Notes: generated from the sequence alone by a model not told the origin. A DNA stretch of 63,698 nucleotides from a bacterium (GCA_037444125.1 JBBINA010000005.1:1-63698); one strand, 5' to 3'; shown: positions 1,062 through 21,657, numbered from the stretch's first letter. Numbers and translations: made by a program.

Positions 1062-2555
1062 ATGATAAATCCGATTCCAAATGTAATTATTGATATTTTA
1101 AAAAAAATGACTGCCCATAAATTTGAGGCTTATTTAGTAGGAGGTTGCGTTAGGGATCTTTTTTTGAATAAAAATAAAATTATTTCTGACTGGGACATTA
1201 CAACTAGCGCTAAGCCAGAAGAAATCCAAGAGCTATTTTCCAAAAGTCGTTATGAGAATAAATTTTTTACTGTTTTTGTGTATCCGAATGATGATCAAGT
1301 TAAAGAGGTTCATATAACCACTTTTAGGCGTGAAGAAAAATATTTAGACAGAAGACATCCGGAAGTTGTTGTATTTGGTAATTCAATCGAAGAAGATTTA
1401 AGTCGCCGCGATTTTACGATTAATGCTTTAGCTTTGAAGTTATCTGAACCCTCAGAAGCCAAAAAAGGATCGACAATAATCGAGGTTGGTTCTAATTATT
1501 TTGAAGTTGTTGATATATATCAAGGATTGAAAGACTTAAAAAATAAAATTATAAAAACAGTGGGTAATCCTGATAAAAGGTTTAATGAAGATGCTTTAAG
1601 ACTAATGAGAGCGGTTCGCTTGGCGACTCAACTTCATTTCGAGATTGACGGGGATACCTTCTCTTCTTTACAGAAAAATGCCTCGTTGAGTCAAGGTATT
1701 GCAGTGGAAAGAATACGTGATGAGTTTTGTAAGATAATTGATTCATCCGAACCCGATCGTGGTATTGAGCTTTTGCGTAAAGTAGGACTATTGCAATATA
1801 TTATTCCTGAACTTTTAGAAGGTGTTAACTGTCTTCAAAATAAGCATCATATTTATGATGTTTATACTCACAATCTATATTCTTTAAAATTTGCGGCTTA
1901 TTTTGGTTATAATTTTGAGGTGCGTCTTGCCGCTTTACTTCATGATATTGGTAAGCCGCGCGTTAAAAAGGGCGAATATCCCAGCGCCACCTTTTATCAA
2001 CACGAAATTGTTGGCGCTAAAATGACAAAGGAAATTTTGACGCGACTTAAATTTCCTAAAAATACAGTTGATAAAGTTACTCACCTTGTTAGGTACCACT
2101 TGTTTTATTATGATATTGGCAAAGTGACCGAAGCTGGCGTTAGAAGATTTATCAGGCGAGTTGGTTTGGATAATGTAAAATTGCTGATACAACTTAGGAT
2201 GGCCGAAAGAAAGGGCTCGGGTGTACCTAAAGCTAAACCTTATCGCTTGAGACATTTTGAATATATGATTGATAAAGTGAAGAAAGACCCCATTAATGTT
2301 TCAATGTTAAAGGTTGATGGCTATGATGTTATGAAAGTTTTAAATATAGGGCCAGGTCCAAAAGTTGGTTTAATTCTTTCAGCTTTACTTGAGGAAATCT
2401 TAACCGACCCCACGCTTAACGAACGAAGTTATTTAATTGAGAGAATAAAAAAACTGGCAGAGCTGTCTGTAGAAGAGCTAAAAATAAAAATGCAGAAAAT
2501 TAAAGAATTTCAAGATAAAGAAGATTTAGAATTAAGAAAAAAGCACGCTATTTAA
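1062..2555 (+). CDS. cca: CCA-adding tRNA nucleotidyltransferase with HD domain
   Basis: VGGCVRD, DWDITT, RRDFTINA and EDALRLMRAVR motifs; HD motif ALLHDIGK. Confidence 0.92.
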   Translation: MINPIPNVIIDILKKMTAHKFEAYLVGGCVRDLFLNKNKIISDWDITTSAKPEEIQELFSKSRYENKFFTVFVYPNDDQVKEVHITTFRREEKYLDRRHPEVVVFGNSIEEDLSRRDFTINALALKLSEPSEAKKGSTIIEVGSNYFEVVDIYQGLKDLKNKIIKTVGNPDKRFNEDALRLMRAVRLATQLHFEIDGDTFSSLQKNASLSQGIAVERIRDEFCKIIDSSEPDRGIELLRKVGLLQYIIPELLEGVNCLQNKHHIYDVYTHNLYSLKFAAYFGYNFEVRLAALLHDIGKPRVKKGEYPSATFYQHEIVGAKMTKEILTRLKFPKNTVDKVTHLVRYHLFYYDIGKVTEAGVRRFIRRVGLDNVKLLIQLRMAERKGSGVPKAKPYRLRHFEYMIDKVKKDPINVSMLKVDGYDVMKVLNIGPGPKVGLILSALLEEILTDPTLNERSYLIERIKKLAELSVEELKIKMQKIKEFQDKEDLELRKKHAI

Positions 2556-2589
2556 CTTTAATTATATTCTTTTTTTAATACTCAATACA

Positions 2590-3792
2590 ATGAAAAAAAG
2601 ATCAGGTAAATATGTTTATCTTGATTATGCTTCTACCACGCCGTTAGATAATGAAGTTGCAAAAGAAGTTGCTAGGTGTAACCAGCTTATTTTTGGCAAT
2701 CCTTCATCAGCTCATAAATATGGTCAGGATGCTCGTCAAGCTGTTGATATGGCGCGGTTTAAAATTAGCCGCATTCTTAACTGCGATTTTAGGGAAATTA
2801 TTTTTACTTCTTCAGCTACTGAATCAAACAATACTATTCTTAAAGGCGTGGCTTTTTATTATTTGCATAACACAAATCTTATTCCGCATATTATTACTAC
2901 AGAGATCGATCATAAATCAGTTTTAGAGCCATTAAATTATCTTAAAAAGTTTAAAATCGAGATATCATATTTAGAAGTTGGTAGCGATGGGCTTATTAAT
3001 ATTAATCGTTTGAAGTCGTTAATTAAGGATAATACAGTTCTTATCTCGATTCATTATGTTAATTCAGAGATAGGCGTTATCCAACCAATTAAGAAAATAG
3101 CTCAGACGCTTAAAGCTATTAATGAGAAGAGGTTATCCAAAGGCAAAGCTCCTATTGTTTTTCATACGGATGCGGTTCAGGCGGCAAATTATTTAACTCT
3201 AGACACAAAGGAGTTGATGATTGATGCTATGACCTTAAGTTCGCACAAGATTTATGGTCCAAAAGGCATAGCTTTATTATATTTAAAAAAAGCAACTCCT
3301 TTTGAAGCTATGATGATGGGAGGTTCGCAGGAGTTTGGGTTTAGAGCTGGAACTGAAAATGTTTCAGGAATATGTGGTTTTAGCAAGGCACTAGAAATTT
3401 GTCAAAACCTTAAAGAAAAAGAAGGAAAACGTTTGAGCGATTTAAGAAATTATTTGTTAAAATTACTGCGAGCAAAATTGCCGCAGGTCCAAGTTAATGG
3501 TTCTTTAACAGAACGTATTGCTAATAATTTAAATATTTCGCTGCCAGGTATTAAAATGGATAGAGTTATTATTGCTTTAGATGTCGCTGGTTTTGCTGTT
3601 TCTGTAGGGTCGGCTTGTTTAGCCGATTCTTCTTCTTATGTGCTTAAAGCTATTGGCACTAATAAGAATCAAACGCGTGACGGCATAAGGATTACTTTGG
3701 GTAGATTTACTAGCAGGCAGGATATTGAAAAATTCGTTAAAGTATTGTATACTATCGTTTTATCTTTAAGGATGACCAATACTTATGAGTGA
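2590..3792 (+). CDS. iscS: Cysteine desulfurase (IscS/NifS family)
   Basis: YLDYASTTP, HTDAVQ, SSHKIYGPKG (PLP lysine), RAGTEN and GSAC (catalytic Cys). Confidence 0.92.
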   Translation: MKKRSGKYVYLDYASTTPLDNEVAKEVARCNQLIFGNPSSAHKYGQDARQAVDMARFKISRILNCDFREIIFTSSATESNNTILKGVAFYYLHNTNLIPHIITTEIDHKSVLEPLNYLKKFKIEISYLEVGSDGLININRLKSLIKDNTVLISIHYVNSEIGVIQPIKKIAQTLKAINEKRLSKGKAPIVFHTDAVQAANYLTLDTKELMIDAMTLSSHKIYGPKGIALLYLKKATPFEAMMMGGSQEFGFRAGTENVSGICGFSKALEICQNLKEKEGKRLSDLRNYLLKLLRAKLPQVQVNGSLTERIANNLNISLPGIKMDRVIIALDVAGFAVSVGSACLADSSSYVLKAIGTNKNQTRDGIRITLGRFTSRQDIEKFVKVLYTIVLSLRMTNTYE

Positions 3793-5137
3793 GAACACCA
3801 GAATTAAATTAGTGCTTTATACTTTTTTTATAGTCTTTTTAATTTTGTTGCTTTTTACATTTAGAAACTTGTGGAACGATTTTGCTAATTTAATAGAGTC
3901 GAAAAAAATTTTTTTTCTTCCGCGACTCGCGACAAAAGAATTTTTACTAGGGTTGGATTTAAAAGGCGGTGTTTCGCTTTTGTATGAAACAGATTTGAGT
4001 CTTATTCCTACTCAAGATCAGGTTAAAGCTTCTGAAGGCGCCCGCGAAGTTATAGAGCGAAGAGTTAATTTTTTCGGCTTTACTGAGTCTCAAGTTGCTT
4101 TGACCAAAAGCGGCGCTTCCTATAGAATTTTAGTTGAGATCCCTGGAAAAATTACCTTGGATCAAGCTAAGGCTTTAGTAGGCGAGACGCCAGTATTGGA
4201 TTTTAGGGAAGAAGCGGCTACCTCGACTAGCGCGACTACCACAAGTGAAGAGCCTTTTAAGTTAACTCCTCTTAATGGTAGAATGCTTAAACGAGCTCAA
4301 GTTGTTTTTAATCCGACTACCTATGCTCCAGAAGTTGAAATAGAATTTAACGATGAAGGCAGGAAAATTTTTGCCGATCTTACCCAAAAGAATTTAAACA
4401 AGAGATTGGCTATATATCTTGACGGCGCGCCCATTACTATTCCAGTAGTGCGTGATGTTATTACTGACGGTCGAGCTGTTATTTCAGGAAATTTTAGTCT
4501 TGAGGAAGCGAAAAAATTAGCCACGCGACTTAATGCAGGTGCTTTACCGGTACCCGTAAAATTAATTTCATCTCAGCAAATTGGTTCAATTTTAGGAGAA
4601 GCTGATTTTCAAAAGACTCTTAAAGCCGGGGCTATTGGAGTTTTAATTTTGATAATTTACTTGATTGTCTACTATCGGCTCTTGGGTGTAGTTTCGGTGT
4701 TGAGTTTAGGGGTTTATGCCATAATTATACTTTTTATTTATAAAAATTTGCCAATTACCTTAACTTTATCAGGTTTGGCTGGTTTTATTGTCAGTATAGG
4801 TATGGCAGTGGATGCAAATGTTTTAATTTTTGAGCGCATTAAAGAAGAGTTACTCTTTGGCAAAGATTTATATCTTGCCTCTGATGATGCTACCAAAAGG
4901 GCTTGGACAGCTATTCGTGATTCAAACCTTACAACTCTTCTTATTATGTTGATTTTGTATATGTTGGGCACAAGTTTTGTTAAAGGTTTTTCCTTGACTC
5001 TTTCTCTTGGTATTATAGTGAGCATTATGACAAATTTTTTCTTAACGCGTTATATTCTGTTGGCATTGTCCCAAACGAAATTAAGCCAGTATAATCTTCT
5101 TTATCTGCCGTTTTATATTTTAAAAAATAATAAGTAA
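3785..5137 (+). CDS. secD: Protein translocase subunit SecD
   Basis: LGLDLKGGV, LNAGALPVP and GMAVDANVLIFERIKEE motifs; C-terminal TM bundle. Confidence 0.95.
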   Translation: MSENTRIKLVLYTFFIVFLILLLFTFRNLWNDFANLIESKKIFFLPRLATKEFLLGLDLKGGVSLLYETDLSLIPTQDQVKASEGAREVIERRVNFFGFTESQVALTKSGASYRILVEIPGKITLDQAKALVGETPVLDFREEAATSTSATTTSEEPFKLTPLNGRMLKRAQVVFNPTTYAPEVEIEFNDEGRKIFADLTQKNLNKRLAIYLDGAPITIPVVRDVITDGRAVISGNFSLEEAKKLATRLNAGALPVPVKLISSQQIGSILGEADFQKTLKAGAIGVLILIIYLIVYYRLLGVVSVLSLGVYAIIILFIYKNLPITLTLSGLAGFIVSIGMAVDANVLIFERIKEELLFGKDLYLASDDATKRAWTAIRDSNLTTLLIMLILYMLGTSFVKGFSLTLSLGIIVSIMTNFFLTRYILLALSQTKLSQYNLLYLPFYILKNNK

Positions 5138-5144
5138 AAGTTAT

Positions 5145-6047
5145 ATGTTTGTTAAAAAAAGATTTTTGTGGTATTTAGTTTCATTTATTTTATTGGTTAT
5201 TGGCTTTTTACCGGTTTTTAAATATGGCATCTCTTTTGATGTTGATTTTAGCGGAGGTTCGATTATTCAAATTCAGTTTGATAAAGATGTCGATAGAGGA
5301 TCTGTGGAAAAACAACTCAAGGAGGCCAAATATAAACTTTCCAGCGTTATTACAGTATCAAAAAATGAATATAGGATAAAGCTCAAAGAAACAGAAAAGG
5401 ACAAAGAAGACATAAAGAACAAAATTTTTGAGGAATTAAAAAAACTATCTTCATTTAAAGAAGACGATGTCTTATTTTTGTCGATTGAGCCGATTGTTGG
5501 AAAAGAATTAACGAATAAGACAATTACTGCTTTGATAATCGGATTAGCGGTTATACTAATTTATATAGGATTTGCTTTTCGTCAGGGTTCGTATATTTTA
5601 CCCTCTTATTTTTTCGGCCTTTCTGGGATTATTGGTGTCGTACATGATGGTTTGATAACTTTGGGGCTTTTCAGCTTATTGTCTCATTATTACGGTTATG
5701 ATTTTTCAATTCCTGTGGCGGCGGCGTTACTTACTATTTTGGGTTATTCAATAAATGACACTATCATTATTTTTGATCGTATCCGCGAAAACATTATGCG
5801 TGAAAGTGTTAATGATTTTGCTCTATTGGTTAATAAATCTATTTTTCAGACACTGCCACGTTCTATTAACACTTCGCTTACTACTATAATAGTTATTGCT
5901 TTAATGTTGTTTATGGGTTCCGATGCCCTGATACCGTTTGCTTTTACTCTTGGTGTTGGTATTTTGATTGGTACTTTTTCTTCAATGTTTATCGCTGCGC
6001 CTCTGTTGTATGATTTTTACTCCTTGCGCCAGAAAAGGCAAAAATAA
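5145..6047 (+). CDS. secF: Protein translocase subunit SecF
   Basis: DFSGGS, GYSINDTIIIFDRIREN and RSINTSLTT motifs; follows secD. Confidence 0.95.
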   Translation: MFVKKRFLWYLVSFILLVIGFLPVFKYGISFDVDFSGGSIIQIQFDKDVDRGSVEKQLKEAKYKLSSVITVSKNEYRIKLKETEKDKEDIKNKIFEELKKLSSFKEDDVLFLSIEPIVGKELTNKTITALIIGLAVILIYIGFAFRQGSYILPSYFFGLSGIIGVVHDGLITLGLFSLLSHYYGYDFSIPVAAALLTILGYSINDTIIIFDRIRENIMRESVNDFALLVNKSIFQTLPRSINTSLTTIIVIALMLFMGSDALIPFAFTLGVGILIGTFSSMFIAAPLLYDFYSLRQKRQK

Positions 6048-6049
6048 AA

Positions 6050-6226
6050 TTATTTCTTTTTATAACGGAAACCAAATTTATTGAACTTATCGGCAAATTT
6101 GCGTTGCAGTAGGTATATTCTCTCCTTTGCCTTTAGAGTTTCAAAAAATCTTCTAAAAAATAATAATTGAGGCATACGAAAAGCAGTTTTGCCCCGTGGC
6201 GGTTTTTTTGAAGCGTAATCTTTCAC
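6050..6226 (-). CDS. Possible small basic protein (58 aa, GTG start), below the ORF-track cutoff
   Basis: Frame VKDYASKKPPRGK...KFGFRYKKK* fills the gap between xseB and the converging secF. No recognisable motif. Confidence 0.3.
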   Translation of the reverse strand: MKDYASKKPPRGKTAFRMPQLLFFRRFFETLKAKERIYLLQRKFADKFNKFGFRYKKK

Positions 6227-6234
6227 GAAATTTT

Positions 6235-6465
6235 TTAATTATTATTTTCGCTATTTTTTTCGATGCCCTTGAACTTAATTTTAATTTCTTCAATATAATT
6301 TTCAACCTCTTTTAATCTGTTTTTTAAATTTCTGGCTAAAAATAACCCTCGTTCAAATTTCTTTATGGCGTCTTCAAGGTCTAAATCTTCTTTTTCGAAA
6401 CTTTCGTTGATTGCTTGTAGTTCTTTGAAATATTCATTGAATTTAAATTTTTCTTTTGGAGCCAT
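6235..6465 (-). CDS. xseB: Exodeoxyribonuclease VII small subunit
   Basis: LDLEDAIKKFERG motif, 76 aa, adjacent to xseA. Confidence 0.9.
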   Translation of the reverse strand: MAPKEKFKFNEYFKELQAINESFEKEDLDLEDAIKKFERGLFLARNLKNRLKEVENYIEEIKIKFKGIEKNSENNN

Positions 6466-6481
6466 AATTATTATTTACAAA

Positions 6482-7678
6482 TCAGAAAAGTGTTTGTTTA
6501 TCTTGAAATAATCTTTTTATTTTTGATTCGATTTTGCCATCGTGCAATAAAGTTTTTATAATTTGATTGGTTTTTAATTGGTTTATGCTTTTTATAGGTT
6601 TTTGATTACAATCATAAACAATTGAATAGCCTTTTTTTAATATAGCATATGGATTGAAATTCTTCAAAAAACTAATTTGAGACCTAAGATTTATTTTTAT
6701 GCTAGTTATGAGGTAATTTATTTTTTCCTCAAGTGACCGTATAAGATTATTTATTCTTAAATTTTGGTCTTTGATAAAATGATTGGCTAGATTTTGAAAT
6801 ATATTAATTTCCTCTGAAAAGGTTCGGATAGCTTTTTCTAGTTTAAAATTTATATTTTTTTCATAATATTCTATTTCGCGCAAGACATTATTTCTATCGC
6901 GGATAATTAACTGGGCAGCGTTAGAAGGCGTAGAGGCCCTTAAATCAGCCACTAAATCGGCAATTGTTGTGTCTTTTTCGTGGCCTATACCTGTTATTAC
7001 TGGTATTTTTGAGGCGAAAATTGCTCTGGCAAGGGCTTCGTTATTAAAAATAGCTAATTCTTCCAGAGAGCCTCCACCTCTAAGTAAAACAACCGCGTCT
7101 AAATTATAAATATGGTTTTTATCGGAAAAGTGTTTTAGCGCTTCAATAATTTGAAAAGGAGCCTCATCTCCTTGTATTTGAACATTGATTAAATATAATT
7201 TCAAACCGCCTATTCTTTCACTGACGATTTTGAGAAAGTCCTTATAGCCAGCGGAGTCGCGTGAGGTTATTAATCCAAGCCTTTCAGGAAAGTCTACAAT
7301 TCTTCTTTTGCGGCTTACATCAAAAAGACCTTCTTTTTCCAGTTTTTCTTTAAGCAGTAAAAACGATTTAAGTATTGATCCTTCACCATGCGGTTTTATT
7401 GTATAGATTTTTAGTCTAAAGCGTCCTGTTTTAGCATAAATATTAGGTAAGCCAGTTACTTCTACCATCATACCATCAGCAATGGCAATTGTTAAGTAGT
7501 AAATAGGAATGAAACACTCAATAACAGAGGTATCGTCTTTAAGAGAAAAAAAGACCCATTTATTGTGACTTATATTGAATCCTGAGACTTCACCAATAAC
7601 CCTTATTTCTTCAAAATCAGTAAGCGCGGTATTTATAAGTTCAATAAATTCAGATACCGTAAGAGGTTTATCTAGCAT
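6482..7678 (-). CDS. xseA: Exodeoxyribonuclease VII large subunit
   Basis: N-terminal OB fold (VIGEVSGF), RGGGSLEEL, GIGHEKD and RASTPSNAA motifs. Confidence 0.95.
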   Translation of the reverse strand: MLDKPLTVSEFIELINTALTDFEEIRVIGEVSGFNISHNKWVFFSLKDDTSVIECFIPIYYLTIAIADGMMVEVTGLPNIYAKTGRFRLKIYTIKPHGEGSILKSFLLLKEKLEKEGLFDVSRKRRIVDFPERLGLITSRDSAGYKDFLKIVSERIGGLKLYLINVQIQGDEAPFQIIEALKHFSDKNHIYNLDAVVLLRGGGSLEELAIFNNEALARAIFASKIPVITGIGHEKDTTIADLVADLRASTPSNAAQLIIRDRNNVLREIEYYEKNINFKLEKAIRTFSEEINIFQNLANHFIKDQNLRINNLIRSLEEKINYLITSIKINLRSQISFLKNFNPYAILKKGYSIVYDCNQKPIKSINQLKTNQIIKTLLHDGKIESKIKRLFQDKQTLF

Positions 7679-8837
7679 TATGATTTAACAAGTTATTATA
7701 TATTTCTTCAAGTTTTTTAGAGATTGTTTCAATTGAATAGTTAGCTTGTTGCTTTTTTTGATTTATTGAAATTCTTCGCCTTAGGTTCTCATTATTAAGC
7801 ATCTTAATAATATAAGAGATAAAATTATTTTTATTACTAGTTAAAAAACCAGTTTCGTTATTTTTGACAAAGTGTTGAGCTGAGCCAAATTTATCTAAAA
7901 CGACTAAGGGTAATCCTGAAACTATAGCTTCTGTTATGGTTAAACCTTGAGATTCAAAGGAGCCAGCATAGACGAAAACATCCGCTCCTGAGTAGTAATG
8001 AGGTAAACTGGTATAATTAACTTGTCCGGTAAAGATTACCCAGCGATCAATTTTTAATTTTTTTGCTTTTATAACTAGCAAGGATTTAAGATATCCACCG
8101 CCCACAATGACCAAATAGACATTTTTGCTTAATCGTTTAAGGACATTGGCAAATGCTTCTAACAAAAAAAAGAGATTTTTTTCATAAGATAGTCGAGAGA
8201 CTGTAAGCAAGATTAAATCACTTGGTTTTAGTTGGTATTTTCTGCGTATAAAGTCTTTACGTGGATATAAAAAGACATTTAAATCAATGGGAGATGGAAG
8301 TACTTTAATTTGACTCCTGTTTTTAATACTTATATTTTGCTTCATAATTGGACTGGGCACAATGACGGTATCACAATGTTTTATATAATTACGAATAAGA
8401 GATTTGACTCCATTTTGCAGAAACAAACTGAACGTTGACAGCCGTTTTGTTTTAAAATATTCAAAGTATGGAGTGTGATAGGTATAAATTAAGGATTTTC
8501 TGTATTTGTGCGCAAATTTTAAAGCAATTTTGCCCAGAAAAAAGGGGTGATGGCTGTGAATTATATCCGGTTTAAATTCTAGGCAAATTGTTTCAATTTT
8601 TTTAAAAAAATAAATTGGCAGTGGATAATTAAGCGATTCGAAAAGACCACTCAGTCGAATTGAGTCAACTCTTACTATGCCTTTTTTAATATTAGTATTA
8701 GTTTTTCTTGTATATTTTGGCGCTATAATTAAGACTTTATGACCTAGTTTTTCCAAGCCGATTTTATAGTTATAAACTGCCCTAGCGACGCCAGAAACTC
8801 TTGGGAGGTAGTTGTTGGTAAAATGGATTATTCTCAT
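7668..8837 (-). CDS. GT4 family glycosyltransferase (possible glycolipid glucosyltransferase)
   Basis: MRIIHFTNNYLPRVSGV N-terminus, HSHHPF, VSRLSYEKN and ESQGLTITEA (EX7E). Start moved from 8888 to the ATG at 8837. Confidence 0.88.
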   Translation of the reverse strand: MRIIHFTNNYLPRVSGVARAVYNYKIGLEKLGHKVLIIAPKYTRKTNTNIKKGIVRVDSIRLSGLFESLNYPLPIYFFKKIETICLEFKPDIIHSHHPFFLGKIALKFAHKYRKSLIYTYHTPYFEYFKTKRLSTFSLFLQNGVKSLIRNYIKHCDTVIVPSPIMKQNISIKNRSQIKVLPSPIDLNVFLYPRKDFIRRKYQLKPSDLILLTVSRLSYEKNLFFLLEAFANVLKRLSKNVYLVIVGGGYLKSLLVIKAKKLKIDRWVIFTGQVNYTSLPHYYSGADVFVYAGSFESQGLTITEAIVSGLPLVVLDKFGSAQHFVKNNETGFLTSNKNNFISYIIKMLNNENLRRRISINQKKQQANYSIETISKKLEEIYNNLLNHNAR

Positions 8838-8913
8838 TGTAGCGAAATAGTTATTTATTTGACAACATTTGACAACATAATATAACATAATATATTATAT
8901 TATATATTTAAAT

Positions 8914-9537
8914 ATGATTTTAATATATTTAAATATGATATATAAGATAATTAAAACCTATAATATCAACGAAATCAATGTATTTATGGTTTTGGGTTTT
9001 ATTTTAGCCAGTTTGTACTTAAATTTTTTTCTATCGCGTTTTTACGCATCAGAATTTGTAATTATTATTGATCCGCCTAATCCAAAAAACGCCAGCTTTA
9101 CTCTTTCTGAGCGTAAAATCAACGCCCTTTTTTTGGCAGAAATAGCAAGTTCGCCTTATTTTTATGAGAAAGATATTTTAAATCGTGAAACTAAACTTAA
9201 AACTTCAATTAATGAACGCACCGGGTCTATAAAATTCCGTTTTAATAGTTATAATCGCGACGATTTAATAAGGGATACTTATAGGCTTTTTTCGTTATTG
9301 AGTTCTGGAGTTTCCTCTATTTTAAGAGGTTCTAAACCTGATGATGTAATGATACTTGAAAAACCATATGTAGAAAGCTATATACCCGCAAGCCGGATAG
9401 TCATAAGTTTAATAAGTGGCTTAGTGCTTGGAAATGTTTTTCTGTTTGTGATTAGGACTTTCTTTAAAATTAAAACAAAAAAAGGCGAAATTAAAGTTAT
9501 GCCTTCTCCGCCTCCGAACTTACCGATAGTAACTTGA
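8914..9537 (+). CDS. Membrane protein with Wzz/YveK-like topology (chain-length determinant-like)
   Basis: One N-terminal and one C-terminal TM helix flanking a ~120-aa extracytoplasmic region; divergent from the GT4 gene. Family assignment is by topology only. Confidence 0.45.
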   Translation: MILIYLNMIYKIIKTYNINEINVFMVLGFILASLYLNFFLSRFYASEFVIIIDPPNPKNASFTLSERKINALFLAEIASSPYFYEKDILNRETKLKTSINERTGSIKFRFNSYNRDDLIRDTYRLFSLLSSGVSSILRGSKPDDVMILEKPYVESYIPASRIVISLISGLVLGNVFLFVIRTFFKIKTKKGEIKVMPSPPPNLPIVT

Positions 9538-17370: not shown

Positions 17371-17398
17371 TTGACATAATATAATTAATATATATAAT
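17371..17398 (+). promoter_or_regulatory. Sigma70-type promoter for the DUF2156/histidine-kinase module
   Basis: TTGACA-16 bp-TATAAT, starting immediately upstream of the divergent mutM start codon. Confidence 0.55.
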
Positions 17399-17453: not shown

Positions 17454-18032
17454 ATGCAACTTCTTAAGGAGGTTGCTGGATTGATTGGCGGCATATTCGT
17501 ATTTTTTGCCTTTATTCCTTATATCGTTTCAATTATTAGAGGTGAAACGAAACCCAACCGGGTTTCGTGGATCTTGTGGGCGATAATTGGGTTTTTAGAT
17601 GTTATAGCATATTTTTCACTTGGTGCAGTCTATACAATGTGGATTCCAGTTCTCTATTTTCTATTTCCTTTAGTAGTGGCAATTCTTTCGTTTAAGTATA
17701 ATGGTAAAGCTGGTGCGACGCCTGCGGATGGCTGGTGTATGTTTGGCGCTAGTGTTGGATTAATATTATGGTGGTATTTTCAATCGGCTTTAGTTGGTTT
17801 AATCTCGTTTATGGTTGTTGATTTGTTTGCGATGTTGCCCACAGTAATCAAGAGCTATTTGCGGCCGTGGGAAGAAAGTAAGCTTGCTTGGACCCTTGCT
17901 TCAGTTGGTAACTTAATTAACTTATTTCCTGTTACAGAATGGAACTTAGATATCGTCTTGTTGCCTCTGTATTATGTCTTTCAGACAGTTACGATTTCTT
18001 TTCTATTATGGTTTTCGCCTAAGTCCCGCTAG
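17454..18032 (+). CDS. Multi-pass membrane protein (about 6-7 TM), unknown function
   Basis: Hydrophobic throughout; PYIVSIIRGETKPNRVSW and LPTVIKSY..P motifs are PQ-loop-like; GGAG RBS. Confidence 0.75.
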   Translation: MQLLKEVAGLIGGIFVFFAFIPYIVSIIRGETKPNRVSWILWAIIGFLDVIAYFSLGAVYTMWIPVLYFLFPLVVAILSFKYNGKAGATPADGWCMFGASVGLILWWYFQSALVGLISFMVVDLFAMLPTVIKSYLRPWEESKLAWTLASVGNLINLFPVTEWNLDIVLLPLYYVFQTVTISFLLWFSPKSR

Positions 18033-18068
18033 CACTGGTTTTTGAGAAGCTAGCGGGATTTTTGTTAA

Positions 18069-19019
18069 TTGTTTATAATTAAAATTATGATCCCTCAATT
18101 TCCTAAGTTTAAAAAACTTGAATTAGAAGATAAATCCGAAATAGAACAATTTACAAGCCAATTTCAACCATATTCTGATTTTAATTTCATAAATTTGTGG
18201 TGTTGGGATGTTGATAATAAAACAGAGATATCAAAGACTGCTAGTGCGCTTATAGTTAAGTTCATTGATTATGTAACAGGTGATTTAACTTATTCTTTTT
18301 TAAGTAGTTCGAATTGCGATGAACTTGCTAAGGATTTACTTGAATCGCTGAGTAAGCAAAATTTGAAACCCGAGCTAAAGTTGATACCTCAAATATCAGC
18401 AAAACATCTTAATAGTTCGACTTTCGAGGTTGTTGAGGACCTAGATAATTTTGATTACATATATGATTTAGAAAAGCTGGTTAGTTATAAGGGTAAATTT
18501 TTTGAGACTAAAAGAAATCTTTTAAATAGATTCGTGAGTAAGTATAAAAAAAATAATATTCAAACCCAAGTTCTTGATTTGAATAATTCTGATATTCGAA
18601 AACAAATTATATTTTTGAGTAATGTTTGGGAAAAGAATAAAAATGTCGTACTTAAAAATGAAACCACGGCCATGCACGAACTTTTTGAGATTCATGATCA
18701 GTGTAAACTAATTGTTGTAGGAATATTTATTGATGCTGATCTTGTTGCCTTCTGTTTTAATGAGCTTCTTAAACATAATTATGCGATTTCGCATTTTACT
18801 AAAGCAAATATCAAATATTCTAGTGGAATATATGCCTATTTAATGCAAGAAAATGCCAGGATATTAATTATGCACGATAAAACCTTGCTTAATTATCAAC
18901 AGGATTTAGGTATTTCGAGTCTTCGTTATGCCAAAAAATCCTTTAGACCAGCATTTTTTCTAAAAAAATATCGAGTATGCCTAAAAAATAGATTGCAATT
19001 TAAAAATGTTTGGCTATAA
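18069..19019 (+). CDS. DUF2156-family protein (aminoacyl-tRNA-dependent transferase-like fold)
   Basis: YSDFNFINLWCW, NFDYIYDLEKL, KRNLLNRF, HFTKAN and NYQQDLGISSLRYAKKSFRP. Confidence 0.8.
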   Translation: MFIIKIMIPQFPKFKKLELEDKSEIEQFTSQFQPYSDFNFINLWCWDVDNKTEISKTASALIVKFIDYVTGDLTYSFLSSSNCDELAKDLLESLSKQNLKPELKLIPQISAKHLNSSTFEVVEDLDNFDYIYDLEKLVSYKGKFFETKRNLLNRFVSKYKKNNIQTQVLDLNNSDIRKQIIFLSNVWEKNKNVVLKNETTAMHELFEIHDQCKLIVVGIFIDADLVAFCFNELLKHNYAISHFTKANIKYSSGIYAYLMQENARILIMHDKTLLNYQQDLGISSLRYAKKSFRPAFFLKKYRVCLKNRLQFKNVWL

Positions 19020-19888
19020 TAAAACAAAAACATAAAATTATGAATATGAGAACTATATCGATATTGTGGATTTTCAAAAAAAACAAAATTATATTTTTTG
19101 GTTTTATCTACTTCTTTCTTATGAGTTTATGGTGGTTCACTATTTTTATACGCGTATTAAAAGATGGGCTAGAAAATAATATTTTTACAAATATTTATGG
19201 ACTGATGGCTTTATATGGAAGTATCTTCGGTTTTTTAATCTCGTTTCGTTGGGGTGGATCGAAAAGCCTGATGGGAAGAATGTTTTTGGCTTTCTCATCA
19301 GGCCTCTTTTCTCAGTTTTTAGGCCAAATATTTTATATTTATTATATTTATGTTCTACACATTGAGGTGCCATATCCTTCAATTGGAGACTTGTTTTTTA
19401 CTCTTAGTGTAATTTTCTATATAGTTGGAGCTATATATCTTGGAAGAATTGTTGGAGCGCATTTTAATATGCAATCATTAAAAGGTAAACTGCGGGCGTT
19501 GCTAATACCTCTTATGGTTTTAGCCTTATCTTATTGGATATTTTTAAAAGATATAGATTATGACTGGTCGAAACCGTTAAGTGTATTTTTTGACTTTATT
19601 TATCCTTTTGGTCAAGCGTTATATATCTCAATAGCTTTAGTTGCCTATTTATTTTCAAGAAACATGCTGGGTGGCATTATGAAGACTCCTATACTATTAC
19701 TTATTGCTTCTCTTTTTACGCAGTATTTGGGTGATTTCTTTTTTACCTATCTGACCTATAAAGAAGCGTGGTATGTAGGAGGTATTGATGACTACCTATT
19801 TTTCCTATCATACTCTTTTATGACCTTTAGCATACTTTTGAGCGGCGAAGTTTTGAATAGAGAAAAGAATGCAGTTGTTAAAGAATAA
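19010..19888 (+). CDS. Stand-alone multi-TM sensor-like membrane protein
   Basis: About 8 TM helices; the PYPSIGDLFF motif resembles TM input modules usually fused to kinases or GGDEF domains. Confidence 0.65.
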   Translation: MAIIKQKHKIMNMRTISILWIFKKNKIIFFGFIYFFLMSLWWFTIFIRVLKDGLENNIFTNIYGLMALYGSIFGFLISFRWGGSKSLMGRMFLAFSSGLFSQFLGQIFYIYYIYVLHIEVPYPSIGDLFFTLSVIFYIVGAIYLGRIVGAHFNMQSLKGKLRALLIPLMVLALSYWIFLKDIDYDWSKPLSVFFDFIYPFGQALYISIALVAYLFSRNMLGGIMKTPILLLIASLFTQYLGDFFFTYLTYKEAWYVGGIDDYLFFLSYSFMTFSILLSGEVLNREKNAVVKE

Positions 19889-19889
19889 T

Positions 19890-20174
19890 ATGGACACCAT
19901 TTTTCAACAAATTGCCTTGAAGATGATAAAAGAACAGGAGTTTATTATTGGTCCATTGGCATGGGAAGAGGCAAAAAGAGTAAAAGGATTAAAAATTATT
20001 GACGCTGTCAATCAAGATTTGGTTTTTGAGGAAGAGCCAAAGCAAGTTTTAGATAGACTAGTGGCGCAATATGAAAGATTGTTTGGTCGGACATCTCGGG
20101 AAATATGTCGGGCTGCTGTATTAAGTTTGACCGCAAGTTTGCCCAAAGAAAGTATTCCCGCGACCTTACAGTAA
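19890..20174 (+). CDS. Small cytoplasmic helical protein, putative signalling adaptor
   Basis: IKEQEFIIGPLAWEEAK...LVAQYERLFG. ATG at 19890 follows the upstream stop by 1 bp. Confidence 0.7.
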   Translation: MDTIFQQIALKMIKEQEFIIGPLAWEEAKRVKGLKIIDAVNQDLVFEEEPKQVLDRLVAQYERLFGRTSREICRAAVLSLTASLPKESIPATLQ

Positions 20175-20220
20175 TTCCTCGTTTAATTTGGTCGTTTTTT
20201 CAATAATTTAAAAACTTATA

Positions 20221-21657
20221 ATGTTTTCGGATTTTCAACGGCAAGATGACAAAAGGGAGGTGAGTAAAACCGACTTTGATTATGAGGCTCATCTTAAAAC
20301 TATAAATGAAGAGCTTTATAAGCGAAATGTTGAGCTAGCTATAAAAAACAAGACACTTTCTTTATTACAGAAATTATATGAGGTTAGCGTTTTAGTACTT
20401 GAACCAAAACTTTTGGCAGCCAAGATAGTTAAATTAATTCAAGCAGAACTTGACTTTGAATTGGTTCAGATGTTGTTGTGCAACAGAGATAAAGATAGAT
20501 TAGAATCTATGAAACTAGCAGTTTCGAGTAGGTTTAAAAATGTTTTGGCAGAAAATAATTGTTCCCTAGATGAGATAAAAATAGAAGGCGCATCCACTCA
20601 TTATTTTTTTGCTCCAGTGGTGATAGATAAACGGATGAATTTTTCCGAAGGCATTACTGCGCCTTTTTCCGGCTGTTTTGATAAAAATATTTTAGAAAAA
20701 CTTAATTTTGATACTCCTATAAAAGCATTACTTGCCCATCCTTTAATGATTGAAAACGAGGTTATAGCTATCCTTCTATTAGCTATAAACAGACCCTATA
20801 AAGATTTAATTGAATTTGAAAGACAATCCATTTCTAGTTTTATTAATGTTATTTCTGTAGCGCTTGATAGGTCTTTTATCTACCAAAAATTAAAAATAGC
20901 CAATCATAAGTTGATTATAGCTAATGACAGGTTAAGGGAACTTGATAAACTAAAGTCAGAGTTCATTAGTATTTCTTCTCATCAATTAAGGGGTCCCCTT
21001 ACGGTTATTAAGGGTTATATTTCAATGATTTTAGAAGAATCGTTTGGAAAAGTTAATAGAGATATTAAAAAAGTTCTTCAGGATGTATATTATTCAAATG
21101 AAAAAATGATTGGTTTAGTCAATGAACTTTTGAATGCTTCACGAGTTGAGCGCGGTGCGGTGACATTGGTATTTGAAGAGGGTGATTTGAATAAATTTAC
21201 AGCCGCCATTATTAAAGAGCTTGACTGGAAAGCCAAACAGAAAAAAATTGATTTAAGCTTTAAACCTGCAAAGATACCACCTGTTTTTTTTGATGTTGAC
21301 AAAATGCGTCATGCTATTTACAATGTTATTGATAATGCTATTAAATATACTGATAAAGGAGGGGTTGAAGTTGTAACTAAGTCAATTAAGGGCAAAATTC
21401 AAATTCGAGTGAAAGATACCGGTATTGGTGTGACTCAAGATGAAAAACAGAAGCTATTTAAACGCTTCACTCGTGGCGATGAGGCATTAAGATTGCATCC
21501 AGAGGGAACTGGTCTTGGATTGTTTTTGGTTAAACAAATAGTCGAGGGTCATAAGGGAAAAGTTTGGGTAGAATCTAAGGGGCGCTATCAAGGTTCAACT
21601 TTTTATATTGAGATTCCGGTTAATTTAAAACTAAAGAAAGTTTTAACTAAGATTTAG
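20221..21657 (+). CDS. Cytoplasmic GAF-domain sensor histidine kinase
   Basis: H-box SHQLRGPLT, N-box NVIDNAIKYT, G1 DTGIGV and G2 GTGLGLF; GAF-like N-terminal region; no TM helix. Confidence 0.92.
   Translation: MFSDFQRQDDKREVSKTDFDYEAHLKTINEELYKRNVELAIKNKTLSLLQKLYEVSVLVLEPKLLAAKIVKLIQAELDFELVQMLLCNRDKDRLESMKLAVSSRFKNVLAENNCSLDEIKIEGASTHYFFAPVVIDKRMNFSEGITAPFSGCFDKNILEKLNFDTPIKALLAHPLMIENEVIAILLLAINRPYKDLIEFERQSISSFINVISVALDRSFIYQKLKIANHKLIIANDRLRELDKLKSEFISISSHQLRGPLTVIKGYISMILEESFGKVNRDIKKVLQDVYYSNEKMIGLVNELLNASRVERGAVTLVFEEGDLNKFTAAIIKELDWKAKQKKIDLSFKPAKIPPVFFDVDKMRHAIYNVIDNAIKYTDKGGVEVVTKSIKGKIQIRVKDTGIGVTQDEKQKLFKRFTRGDEALRLHPEGTGLGLFLVKQIVEGHKGKVWVESKGRYQGSTFYIEIPVNLKLKKVLTKI

Follow-up and report, generated by a model that had tools for sequence, protein, structure and literature searches.

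In several bacterial two-component systems perception is delegated to a membrane protein other than the kinase, as in BceS-BceAB, GraS-GraX/VraFG, LiaS-LiaF and DcuS-DctA, possibly with a small cytoplasmic bridge between the partners, and the BceS, GraS, LiaS and DcuS kinases keep membrane helices of their own. Other described systems carry a polytopic input domain N-terminal to a kinase or to another output, such as the seven-transmembrane (7TM) type sensor domains HisKA_7TM (PF16927), MASE3 (PF17159), MASE4 (PF17158) and 7TMR-DISM. The locus described here, at positions 17454-21657 of contig JBBINA010000005.1 (assembly GCA_037444125.1), resembles both groups and comprises a membrane sensor (gene C), a small coupling protein (gene D) and a histidine kinase (gene E) beside a DUF2156 transferase (gene B). 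Its perception is likewise delegated, but the kinase is wholly soluble, and fused forms in other genomes show that a single polypeptide has here been cleanly divided. We concluded that C, D and E are almost certainly three parts of one sensor histidine kinase, encoded here by separate genes, and that B is very probably linked to this split kinase in function.

The analysed window is the entire 63.7-kb contig, with a G+C content of ~33 %, from a genome of 802 kb (19 contigs, 98 % complete) that is placed in the Patescibacteria, or Candidate Phyla Radiation (CPR), through its relatives. Five open reading frames (ORFs), A to E, span the locus on the plus strand, with intergenic gaps of 54 (A-B), 20 (B-C), 1 (C-D) and 46 nt (D-E), so that the five closely spaced genes reported in a preliminary description of this DNA do exist. 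The four genes of main interest are:

18087-19019, plus strand: gene B, a free-standing DUF2156 double-GNAT transferase of 310 aa (PF09924, 1.2e-24)
19040-19888, plus strand: gene C, a sensor module of 282 aa with eight transmembrane (TM) helices, consisting of an N-terminal helix and a 7TM receptor-like bundle
19890-20174, plus strand: gene D, a cytoplasmic coupling domain of 94 aa, its ATG chosen to fit the N-terminus of the family
20221-21657, plus strand: gene E, a soluble histidine kinase of 478 aa with an N-terminal helix, a GAF-like domain, HisKA and HATPase_c

Natural fusions carry the conclusion on C, D and E. Proteins of 364-387 aa in which C is fused to D were found, and two of them were matched by D in BLASTP (3e-11 and 2e-19); on a WWE3 contig a C-D fusion is divergent from DUF2156 and kinase genes. 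The complete form, P0167, is an uninterrupted ORF of 796 codons in its contig, and the 796-aa protein consists of C (residues 3-264), D (271-358), GAF, HisKA and HATPase_c. Gene D shares 42 % identity with residues 271-358 of P0167 (4e-24), and gene E aligns colinearly with residues 361-793 (30 % identity, 2e-56). It is because of the C-D fusions and this C-D-GAF-HisKA-HATPase_c fusion that the three genes were regarded as one kinase. The fused input domain typical of HisKA kinases was not found here, where C and D are separate genes; the fused state is confined to rare relatives, of which P0167 is one. Two statements of the preliminary description are borne out by these fusions and by synteny in 80 species, namely that the TM input module with the PYPSIGD motif (residues 111-117 of C, nt 19370-19390) is encoded apart from the soluble kinase, and that a small protein lies between them; the latter is D, a coupler shared with the fusions.

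Gene E encodes HisKA (PF00512, 1.7e-11, residues 245-312) and HATPase_c (PF02518, 7.2e-25) domains, and no membrane helix was found in it. The H, N, G1, F and G2 boxes of the kinase are retained: H254, N368, N372, D399, G401, G403, F413 and G431 are invariant across 33 relatives, and G429 and G433 are nearly so (at least 90 %). The earlier label of a GAF kinase holds for the kinase domains. No GAF match was obtained in E itself at E<=0.01, and the GAF part of the label is supported solely through relatives (GAF_2 matched in 23 of the 33) and through P0167, with whose GAF-bearing stretch residues 22-230 of E align colinearly. A strongly conserved N-terminal helix with the consensus E.YK.NLELA..NKTLSLLRKL was observed in all E relatives (window positions 20281-20400, E residues ~21-60). 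In the fused protein this helix directly follows D, and it is therefore likely to be a docking or signalling element.

The conservation of the locus was analyzed in a scan with one genome per species, in which 239 species were returned and 80 loci were kept. These loci were processed by ORF calling, clustering and hidden Markov model building, and neighbours were counted only where the contig extends far enough. Many of the 80 are titled 'uncultured Gammaproteobacteria' in their records, which were counted merely as separate species; the titles of module contigs L009, L010, L014, L015, L019 and others ('uncultured Gammaproteobacteria/Pseudomonadales') are probably automatic mislabels from one bulk metagenome-assembled genome project. 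B adjoins C in 68 of 72 loci (23 co-directional and 45 divergent, with gaps mostly of 10-80 nt), D lies directly 3' of C in 72 of 75 (gaps mostly 1-12 nt), and E follows D in 59 of 66. The clustering of B-C-D-E is thus far beyond chance, and that of gene A is not. When gene A was counted over 84 analysed loci, the present window included, it was present in four, that is, in the window, in L017 (adjoining B) and in L048 and L080 (3-7 kb away), and it was rejected as a module member on this count. The preliminary description had named independent assortment of the five genes across genomes as an outcome that would speak against a module; B to E travel together in 80 species, with the DUF2156 gene a constant neighbour as had been proposed, and A does assort independently.

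It is scarcely credible that genes B-E are neighbours by chance or through operon shuffling and have no common function. The lack of conservation of gene A and the terminator-like hairpin that parts A from B would agree with such an explanation, but it is contradicted for B-E by the gene fusions and by the B-C-D-E order, which is retained in dozens of species from several classes of Patescibacteria. Genes B-E are a reduced copy, in this genome, of a module found across the Patescibacteria. More than 100 close relatives of C were found, nearly all of 265-290 aa and from a patescibacterium wherever the organism is named, and a profile of 25 C sequences retrieved 2360 cluster representatives at E<=0.001 among 1.8 billion. 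The P0002 search of 60 genomes of the same class gave no match, which has little weight as the present genome is the sole member of its family in that collection. In locus L037 one C gene is followed by two copies of D (5631-5909 and 6510-6788).

Neither C nor D, nor gene A, gave anything meaningful in Pfam at E<=10 or in NCBIfam at E<=0.1. The structure of a natural C-D fusion was modelled with AlphaFold2 from a 90-row alignment; in the model (pLDDT 93.6, pTM 0.91) eight membrane helices lead into a compact domain. The D domain is modelled as two helices, a beta-hairpin and two to three further helices, and D modelled alone reached a pLDDT of 94.5. By the positive-inside rule both termini of C are cytoplasmic. 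The motif set of C comprises WGG.S, PYPSxGD, LDFGYPxGQ, LGGxMK, QYxxDxxFLYQ and NDY, of which the rule places the invariant PYPS..D, LDFGYP.G, FL and D..Y at the outer face; the loops that contain WGG.S and LGG are on the cytoplasmic side, close to D. An aromatic and acidic outer pocket of this kind would suit a cationic ligand.

When the C-D model was compared with known structures by VIA-align, TM2-TM8 superposed on 7TM receptors and rhodopsins with Z of 9.6-12.9, and 7TM receptors were the only structures returned; Foldseek against the PDB gave no match at E<=0.001 (best E>=0.012). We regard the likeness of the predicted C fold to 7TM receptors as a shared arrangement and do not claim kinship. 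The nearest named Atlas clusters to C are HisKA_7TM, MASE3 and MASE4 (0.77-0.79, a weak lead), from which C differs in having no Pfam match, eight helices and a motif set of its own, although it may be distantly related to them. D has neither a sequence relative nor a fold match in the PDB: Foldseek produced only E>=1 (weak matches to H-NOX, in its N-terminal half), and VIA reached a Z of 5.6 at best (Af1502 5.1). D had been likened to archaeal signalling output domains; neither sequence nor fold shows such a resemblance, and this candidate was dropped as unsupported.

NB-ARC/STAND NTPases carry the C domain too, at their C-terminus; it also follows a TrmB helix-turn-helix (HTH) domain, occurs in tandem and is joined to histidine kinase domains, and we therefore considered it a modular signalling or sensor domain. 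These architectures bear on another explanation, in which C is mainly a membrane partner of B that presents or translocates its substrate, like the membrane part of MprF, and is no ligand receptor, while the kinase merely reports on the complex. B and C are the tightest pair in the module, in both orientations and with gaps of ~10-80 nt, and the membrane part of C is unusually rich in invariant polar and aromatic residues, as an enzyme or transporter would be. We nevertheless judged this explanation improbable because the C domain occurs without B in the fused kinase P0167, because its fusions to STAND NTPases and HTH domains are typical of sensors, and because the fold search yielded receptors and not transporters.

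Several loci show the C domain in other settings. In L030 the C (661-1473) and D (1501-1788) genes are followed not by a kinase but by a gene for a 776-aa AAA/NACHT-type NTPase with a C-terminal C domain of its own (1809-4139, plus strand), and the C-D pair can therefore couple to a STAND NTPase in place of a kinase. NB-ARC/STAND NTPases of 676-765 aa with a C-terminal C domain are encoded in L051 (3104-5134), L052 (108-2138), L055 (3493-5523) and L075 (3041-5338), a few kb from B-C-D-E and in several Microgenomates-like genomes. The L054 locus (3754-9316) has a different arrangement of the sensor domain: three adjoining genes (521, 440 and 538 aa) each encode a C domain with extra parts, one of them with a weak GAF_3 match, and B and E are absent.

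The genes that accompany the module in other species suggest what B acts on. An EamA/DMT permease gene is near the module in 42 of 55 loci and a decarboxylase gene in 40 of 55 (pyruvoyl arginine decarboxylase in 28, an AdoMet_dc-family enzyme in 12). In the present genome no EamA, decarboxylase, response regulator or pilus gene is found beside the module, and no AdoMet_dc or EamA match was obtained anywhere in the genome. Given this decarboxylase and small-molecule permease context, an amine substrate is at least as well indicated as a lipid, and we put the chances that the acceptor of B is an amine rather than a lipid at about even.

B matches PF09924 (LPG_synthase_C/DUF2156) over model positions 7-297 of 298 and has nothing beyond it. 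The absence of a fused flippase had been pointed out before and holds for the neighbours too, in that A and C have no Pfam match. Loss of the catalytic pocket had been named as an objection to a functional enzyme; the pocket is kept, with a full-length domain, 16 residues invariant in the family and a K/R-rich helix between the GNAT halves. The closest described proteins are BT_3689 (PDB 2HQY) and the Helicobacter pylori DUF2156 protein HPB8_1270, which have the same size and architecture as B and share the motifs KRN..NRF and GL..LR..K....P with it. We know of no link between either of these proteins and a sensor kinase, decarboxylase or permease. Residues 8-302 of B align with residues 4-298 of the 2HQY chain (2.6e-18 with the single sequence and 8e-41 with a 28-member profile), and the runners-up of the profile are classical N-acetyltransferases (0.014-0.044). 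No solved MprF synthase domain was retrieved at E<=1 by the single sequence or by the profile.

On the donor of B the genome content gives an ambiguous answer. The nearest solved relative, 2HQY, was reported with acetyl-CoA in the active site, and its clade is described as acetyl-CoA-binding acetyltransferases (PMC10700544). CoaE, acetate kinase and PFOR (POR_N) were not found in the present genome, so the supply of acetyl-CoA is doubtful; acetyl-CoA may be scarce here, and the genome may not make the donor reported for BT_3689 and HPB8_1270, whereas aminoacyl-tRNA is always available. The genome contains one short GNAT frame only.

Both donors have a corresponding explanation of the module. 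In the first, which we consider possible but doubtful, the locus is a split MprF-like lipid system: B would aminoacylate phosphatidylglycerol or another, possibly host-derived, lipid from aminoacyl-tRNA, A or EamA would flip the product, and C-D-E would sense membrane charge or the modified head-group and adjust the system. MprF (PF09924 + PF03706) belongs to the same catalytic Pfam family, has the basic inter-GNAT helix, and, like B, is a case of a soluble transferase paired with polytopic membrane parts. The full-length PF09924 match supports this explanation, as does the basic helix, which serves as the aminoacyl-tRNA-binding element in DUF2156 enzymes (PMC7334510). Residues 130-160 of B contain 9 K/R against 1 D/E (3-11 K/R and 1-6 D/E in 27 relatives), but the helix is equally basic in 2HQY and does not discriminate. 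Aminoacylation of membrane sterols by free-standing DUF2156 enzymes is known (PMC8913301). A phospholipid acceptor is possible since a CDP-alcohol phosphatidyltransferase is present in the genome, and, with CoaE, acetate kinase and PFOR not found, the one donor certain to be available is aminoacyl-tRNA. Against a split MprF-like system, the B profile retrieved 2HQY and, far more weakly, acetyltransferases instead of solved MprF domains; a flippase domain of the MprF type is neither fused nor adjacent; no aminoacyl-tRNA synthetase gene adjoins B here; and the genes around B encode a kinase, a decarboxylase and a permease of the DMT or PQ-loop-like type. Amino-acid decarboxylases are the tightest metabolic neighbours, and they have no role in known lipid aminoacylation. 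The preliminary description had read the module as sensing or regulating lipid aminoacylation, as using aminoacyl transfer for signalling, or as reporting charged-tRNA status; its main idea corresponds to this split MprF-like system. With B matching 2HQY and not the solved MprF domains, the use of aminoacyl-tRNA and the reporting of charged-tRNA status received no direct support.

In the second, B would be a protein lysine acetyltransferase acting on the kinase, the regulators or pilus proteins, that is, a regulatory accessory and not a metabolic enzyme. The end-to-end alignment with the acetyl-CoA-bound BT_3689 is in its favour, together with the contribution of HPB8_1270 to acetylation of RNase J lysines; this effect is partial and redundant by the paper's own account (PMC10700544). 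Since such a role would leave the recurrent decarboxylase and permease neighbours unexplained and would depend on a doubtful supply of acetyl-CoA, we regard it as very improbable.

Gene A and the putative transcription signals of the locus are as follows:

17371-17398, plus strand: promoter-like site TTGACA-16-TATAAT upstream of gene A, 12/12 consensus positions (a consensus match only)
17454-18032, plus strand: gene A, a polytopic, PQ-loop-like membrane protein of 192 aa from a rare family, with no Pfam match
18021-18070, plus strand: terminator-like hairpin between A and B, a 13-bp stem followed by AUUUUUGUU (U-run)
18993-19020, plus strand: promoter-like site TTGCAA-16-TATAAT inside the 3' end of B and just upstream of C, 10/12 consensus positions

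The hairpin 3' of gene A has a dG of -22.3 kcal/mol and a z of -4.5, and none of 200 shuffled sequences folded equally well. The start of gene B was chosen to fit the N-terminus of the family (MIPxFPxFKKLEL). The single promoter proposed earlier for all five genes is doubtful in view of the hairpin and U-run after A and the promoter-like site before C, and one operon with one promoter was not adopted, on account of the hairpin. B is divergent from C in two thirds of the other species, where C-D-E must therefore have a promoter of their own.

Gene A sits at the position held by the EamA permease in other species, and it may tentatively be seen as a replacement permease. Its best Atlas match is a 'PQ loop repeat protein' (0.95, 229/256 features common). 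The motifs IPYI..(9)..KP...SW and LPTV..(7)..P..E....W are two occurrences of P-x(9-11)-P...W, and a comparison of the two halves of the protein by hhalign (E 0.004, probability 8 %) indicated a weak internal repeat. The pyruvoyl arginine decarboxylase (PvlArgDC) gene of this genome was observed on contig 7 (L085:5489-6837, minus strand), where its partner is a PIG-L deacetylase gene and an HD-domain gene faces it, an arrangement that is no classical polyamine operon.

A single-domain response regulator is encoded near the module in 25 of 45 loci, and type IV pilus genes (PilB, PilC, pseudopilins) in 16 of 45. The absence of a response regulator noted previously is true of the locus and not of the genome, which has two histidine kinases and two intact response regulators in total. 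Both regulators, encoded at 30156-30533 of contig 8 (minus strand) and at 1701-2105 of contig 18 (plus strand), consist of a receiver alone (125 and 134 aa), retain the acidic pocket together with the phospho-acceptor Asp, the Thr/Ser and the Lys, and are 43-52 % identical to the module regulators of other species. Each adjoins a gene for a PilB-like ATPase and, because of this position, both probably act on the pilus/DNA-uptake machine. Whether the regulators at the pilus loci are the output of the kinase we consider an evenly balanced question. PilG and PilH of the Chp system are single-domain CheY-like regulators that control type IV pili. They resemble the module regulators in being receiver-only, in being encoded with pilus genes and, presumably, in acting by protein contact; the present module differs in that there is no CheA-type kinase or chemoreceptor, the candidate kinase is of the HisKA type with GAF, and the link with pili comes from gene position alone. 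On contig 8 (L086:3474-8986, minus strand) the regulator gene lies between recA (340 aa) and the PilB-like ATPase gene (553 aa), downstream of a 692-aa gene, in what looks like a DNA-uptake/recombination cluster.

In the reading that we prefer, and to which we give an even chance, the module is a circuit that makes, transports and senses an acylated amine or a membrane modification and thereby controls pili. B would acylate or aminoacylate an amine or a membrane head-group, a candidate amine being agmatine from the pyruvoyl arginine decarboxylase encoded elsewhere in the genome. A small permease (A here, EamA in other species) would carry the substrate or product across the membrane, and C would bind that compound, or sense the modified surface, in its outer aromatic and acidic pocket. 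The signal would leave C by its conserved cytoplasmic loops, reach D and from there enter E through the N-terminal helix and the GAF domain. E would then autophosphorylate on H254 and phosphorylate one or both of the CheY-like single-domain regulators, which would tune the type IV pilus/DNA-uptake machine, probably by protein contact rather than transcription.

Several points weigh against this reading. Transcription of A-E as a single unit is improbable, and co-transcription is put in doubt by the hairpin downstream of A and by the orientation of B, which varies. PvlArgDC is unlinked to the module, and the permease role of A is tentative, being drawn from where the gene lies, from a weak repeat signal and from a single Atlas match. 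P0167 has no B gene beside it, so the kinase can occur without B, and the resemblance of C to 7TM receptors (Z<=12.9) is within reach of unrelated helical bundles. Lastly, we infer the pairing of E with a regulator solely from orthology and from the counts of two kinases and two regulators.

A more specific version of the make-transport-sense circuit, which we hold to be unlikely, is a self-signalling circuit of ultra-small episymbionts. In it the decarboxylase and the DUF2156 enzyme would make an acylated or aminoacylated amine (e.g. an agmatine derivative), the permease would release it, the split 7TM-like receptor kinase would detect it, and the receiver-only regulators would switch the pilus or DNA uptake. 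If true, such a circuit would establish a novel form of quorum or host-contact signalling in which the receptor fold family and the coupling domain are novel as well.

When the literature on DUF2156 in Patescibacteria, on decarboxylases, pili and kinases in Saccharibacteria, and on two-component systems and pili in CPR bacteria was searched, no description of the module was found. What is new here is that a two-component kinase is divided among three genes, that its input (C) and coupling (D) domains are undescribed, and that it has a DUF2156 partner. The features of the present locus are the reduced four-gene form, the PQ-loop-like gene that replaces EamA, the unlinked decarboxylase, the location of both regulators at PilB loci and the doubtful supply of acetyl-CoA. 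A large part of bacterial diversity belongs to the Patescibacteria/CPR, whose cells are attached to others and possess a very small set of regulators; in this genome one of the two histidine kinases belongs to a group-wide module. The ligand of the module would reveal what such minimal cells monitor and could explain how the pili that serve attachment and DNA uptake are controlled. Studies of signal transfer from a receptor to a soluble kinase have a ready system in the split, half-fused and fully fused forms that occur in nature.

The other histidine kinase of the genome (459 aa) was observed on contig 12 (L088:3811-5581). Its gene is preceded by one for an 803-aa Ig-like/TSP3 surface protein and followed by a prokaryotic diacylglycerol kinase gene.

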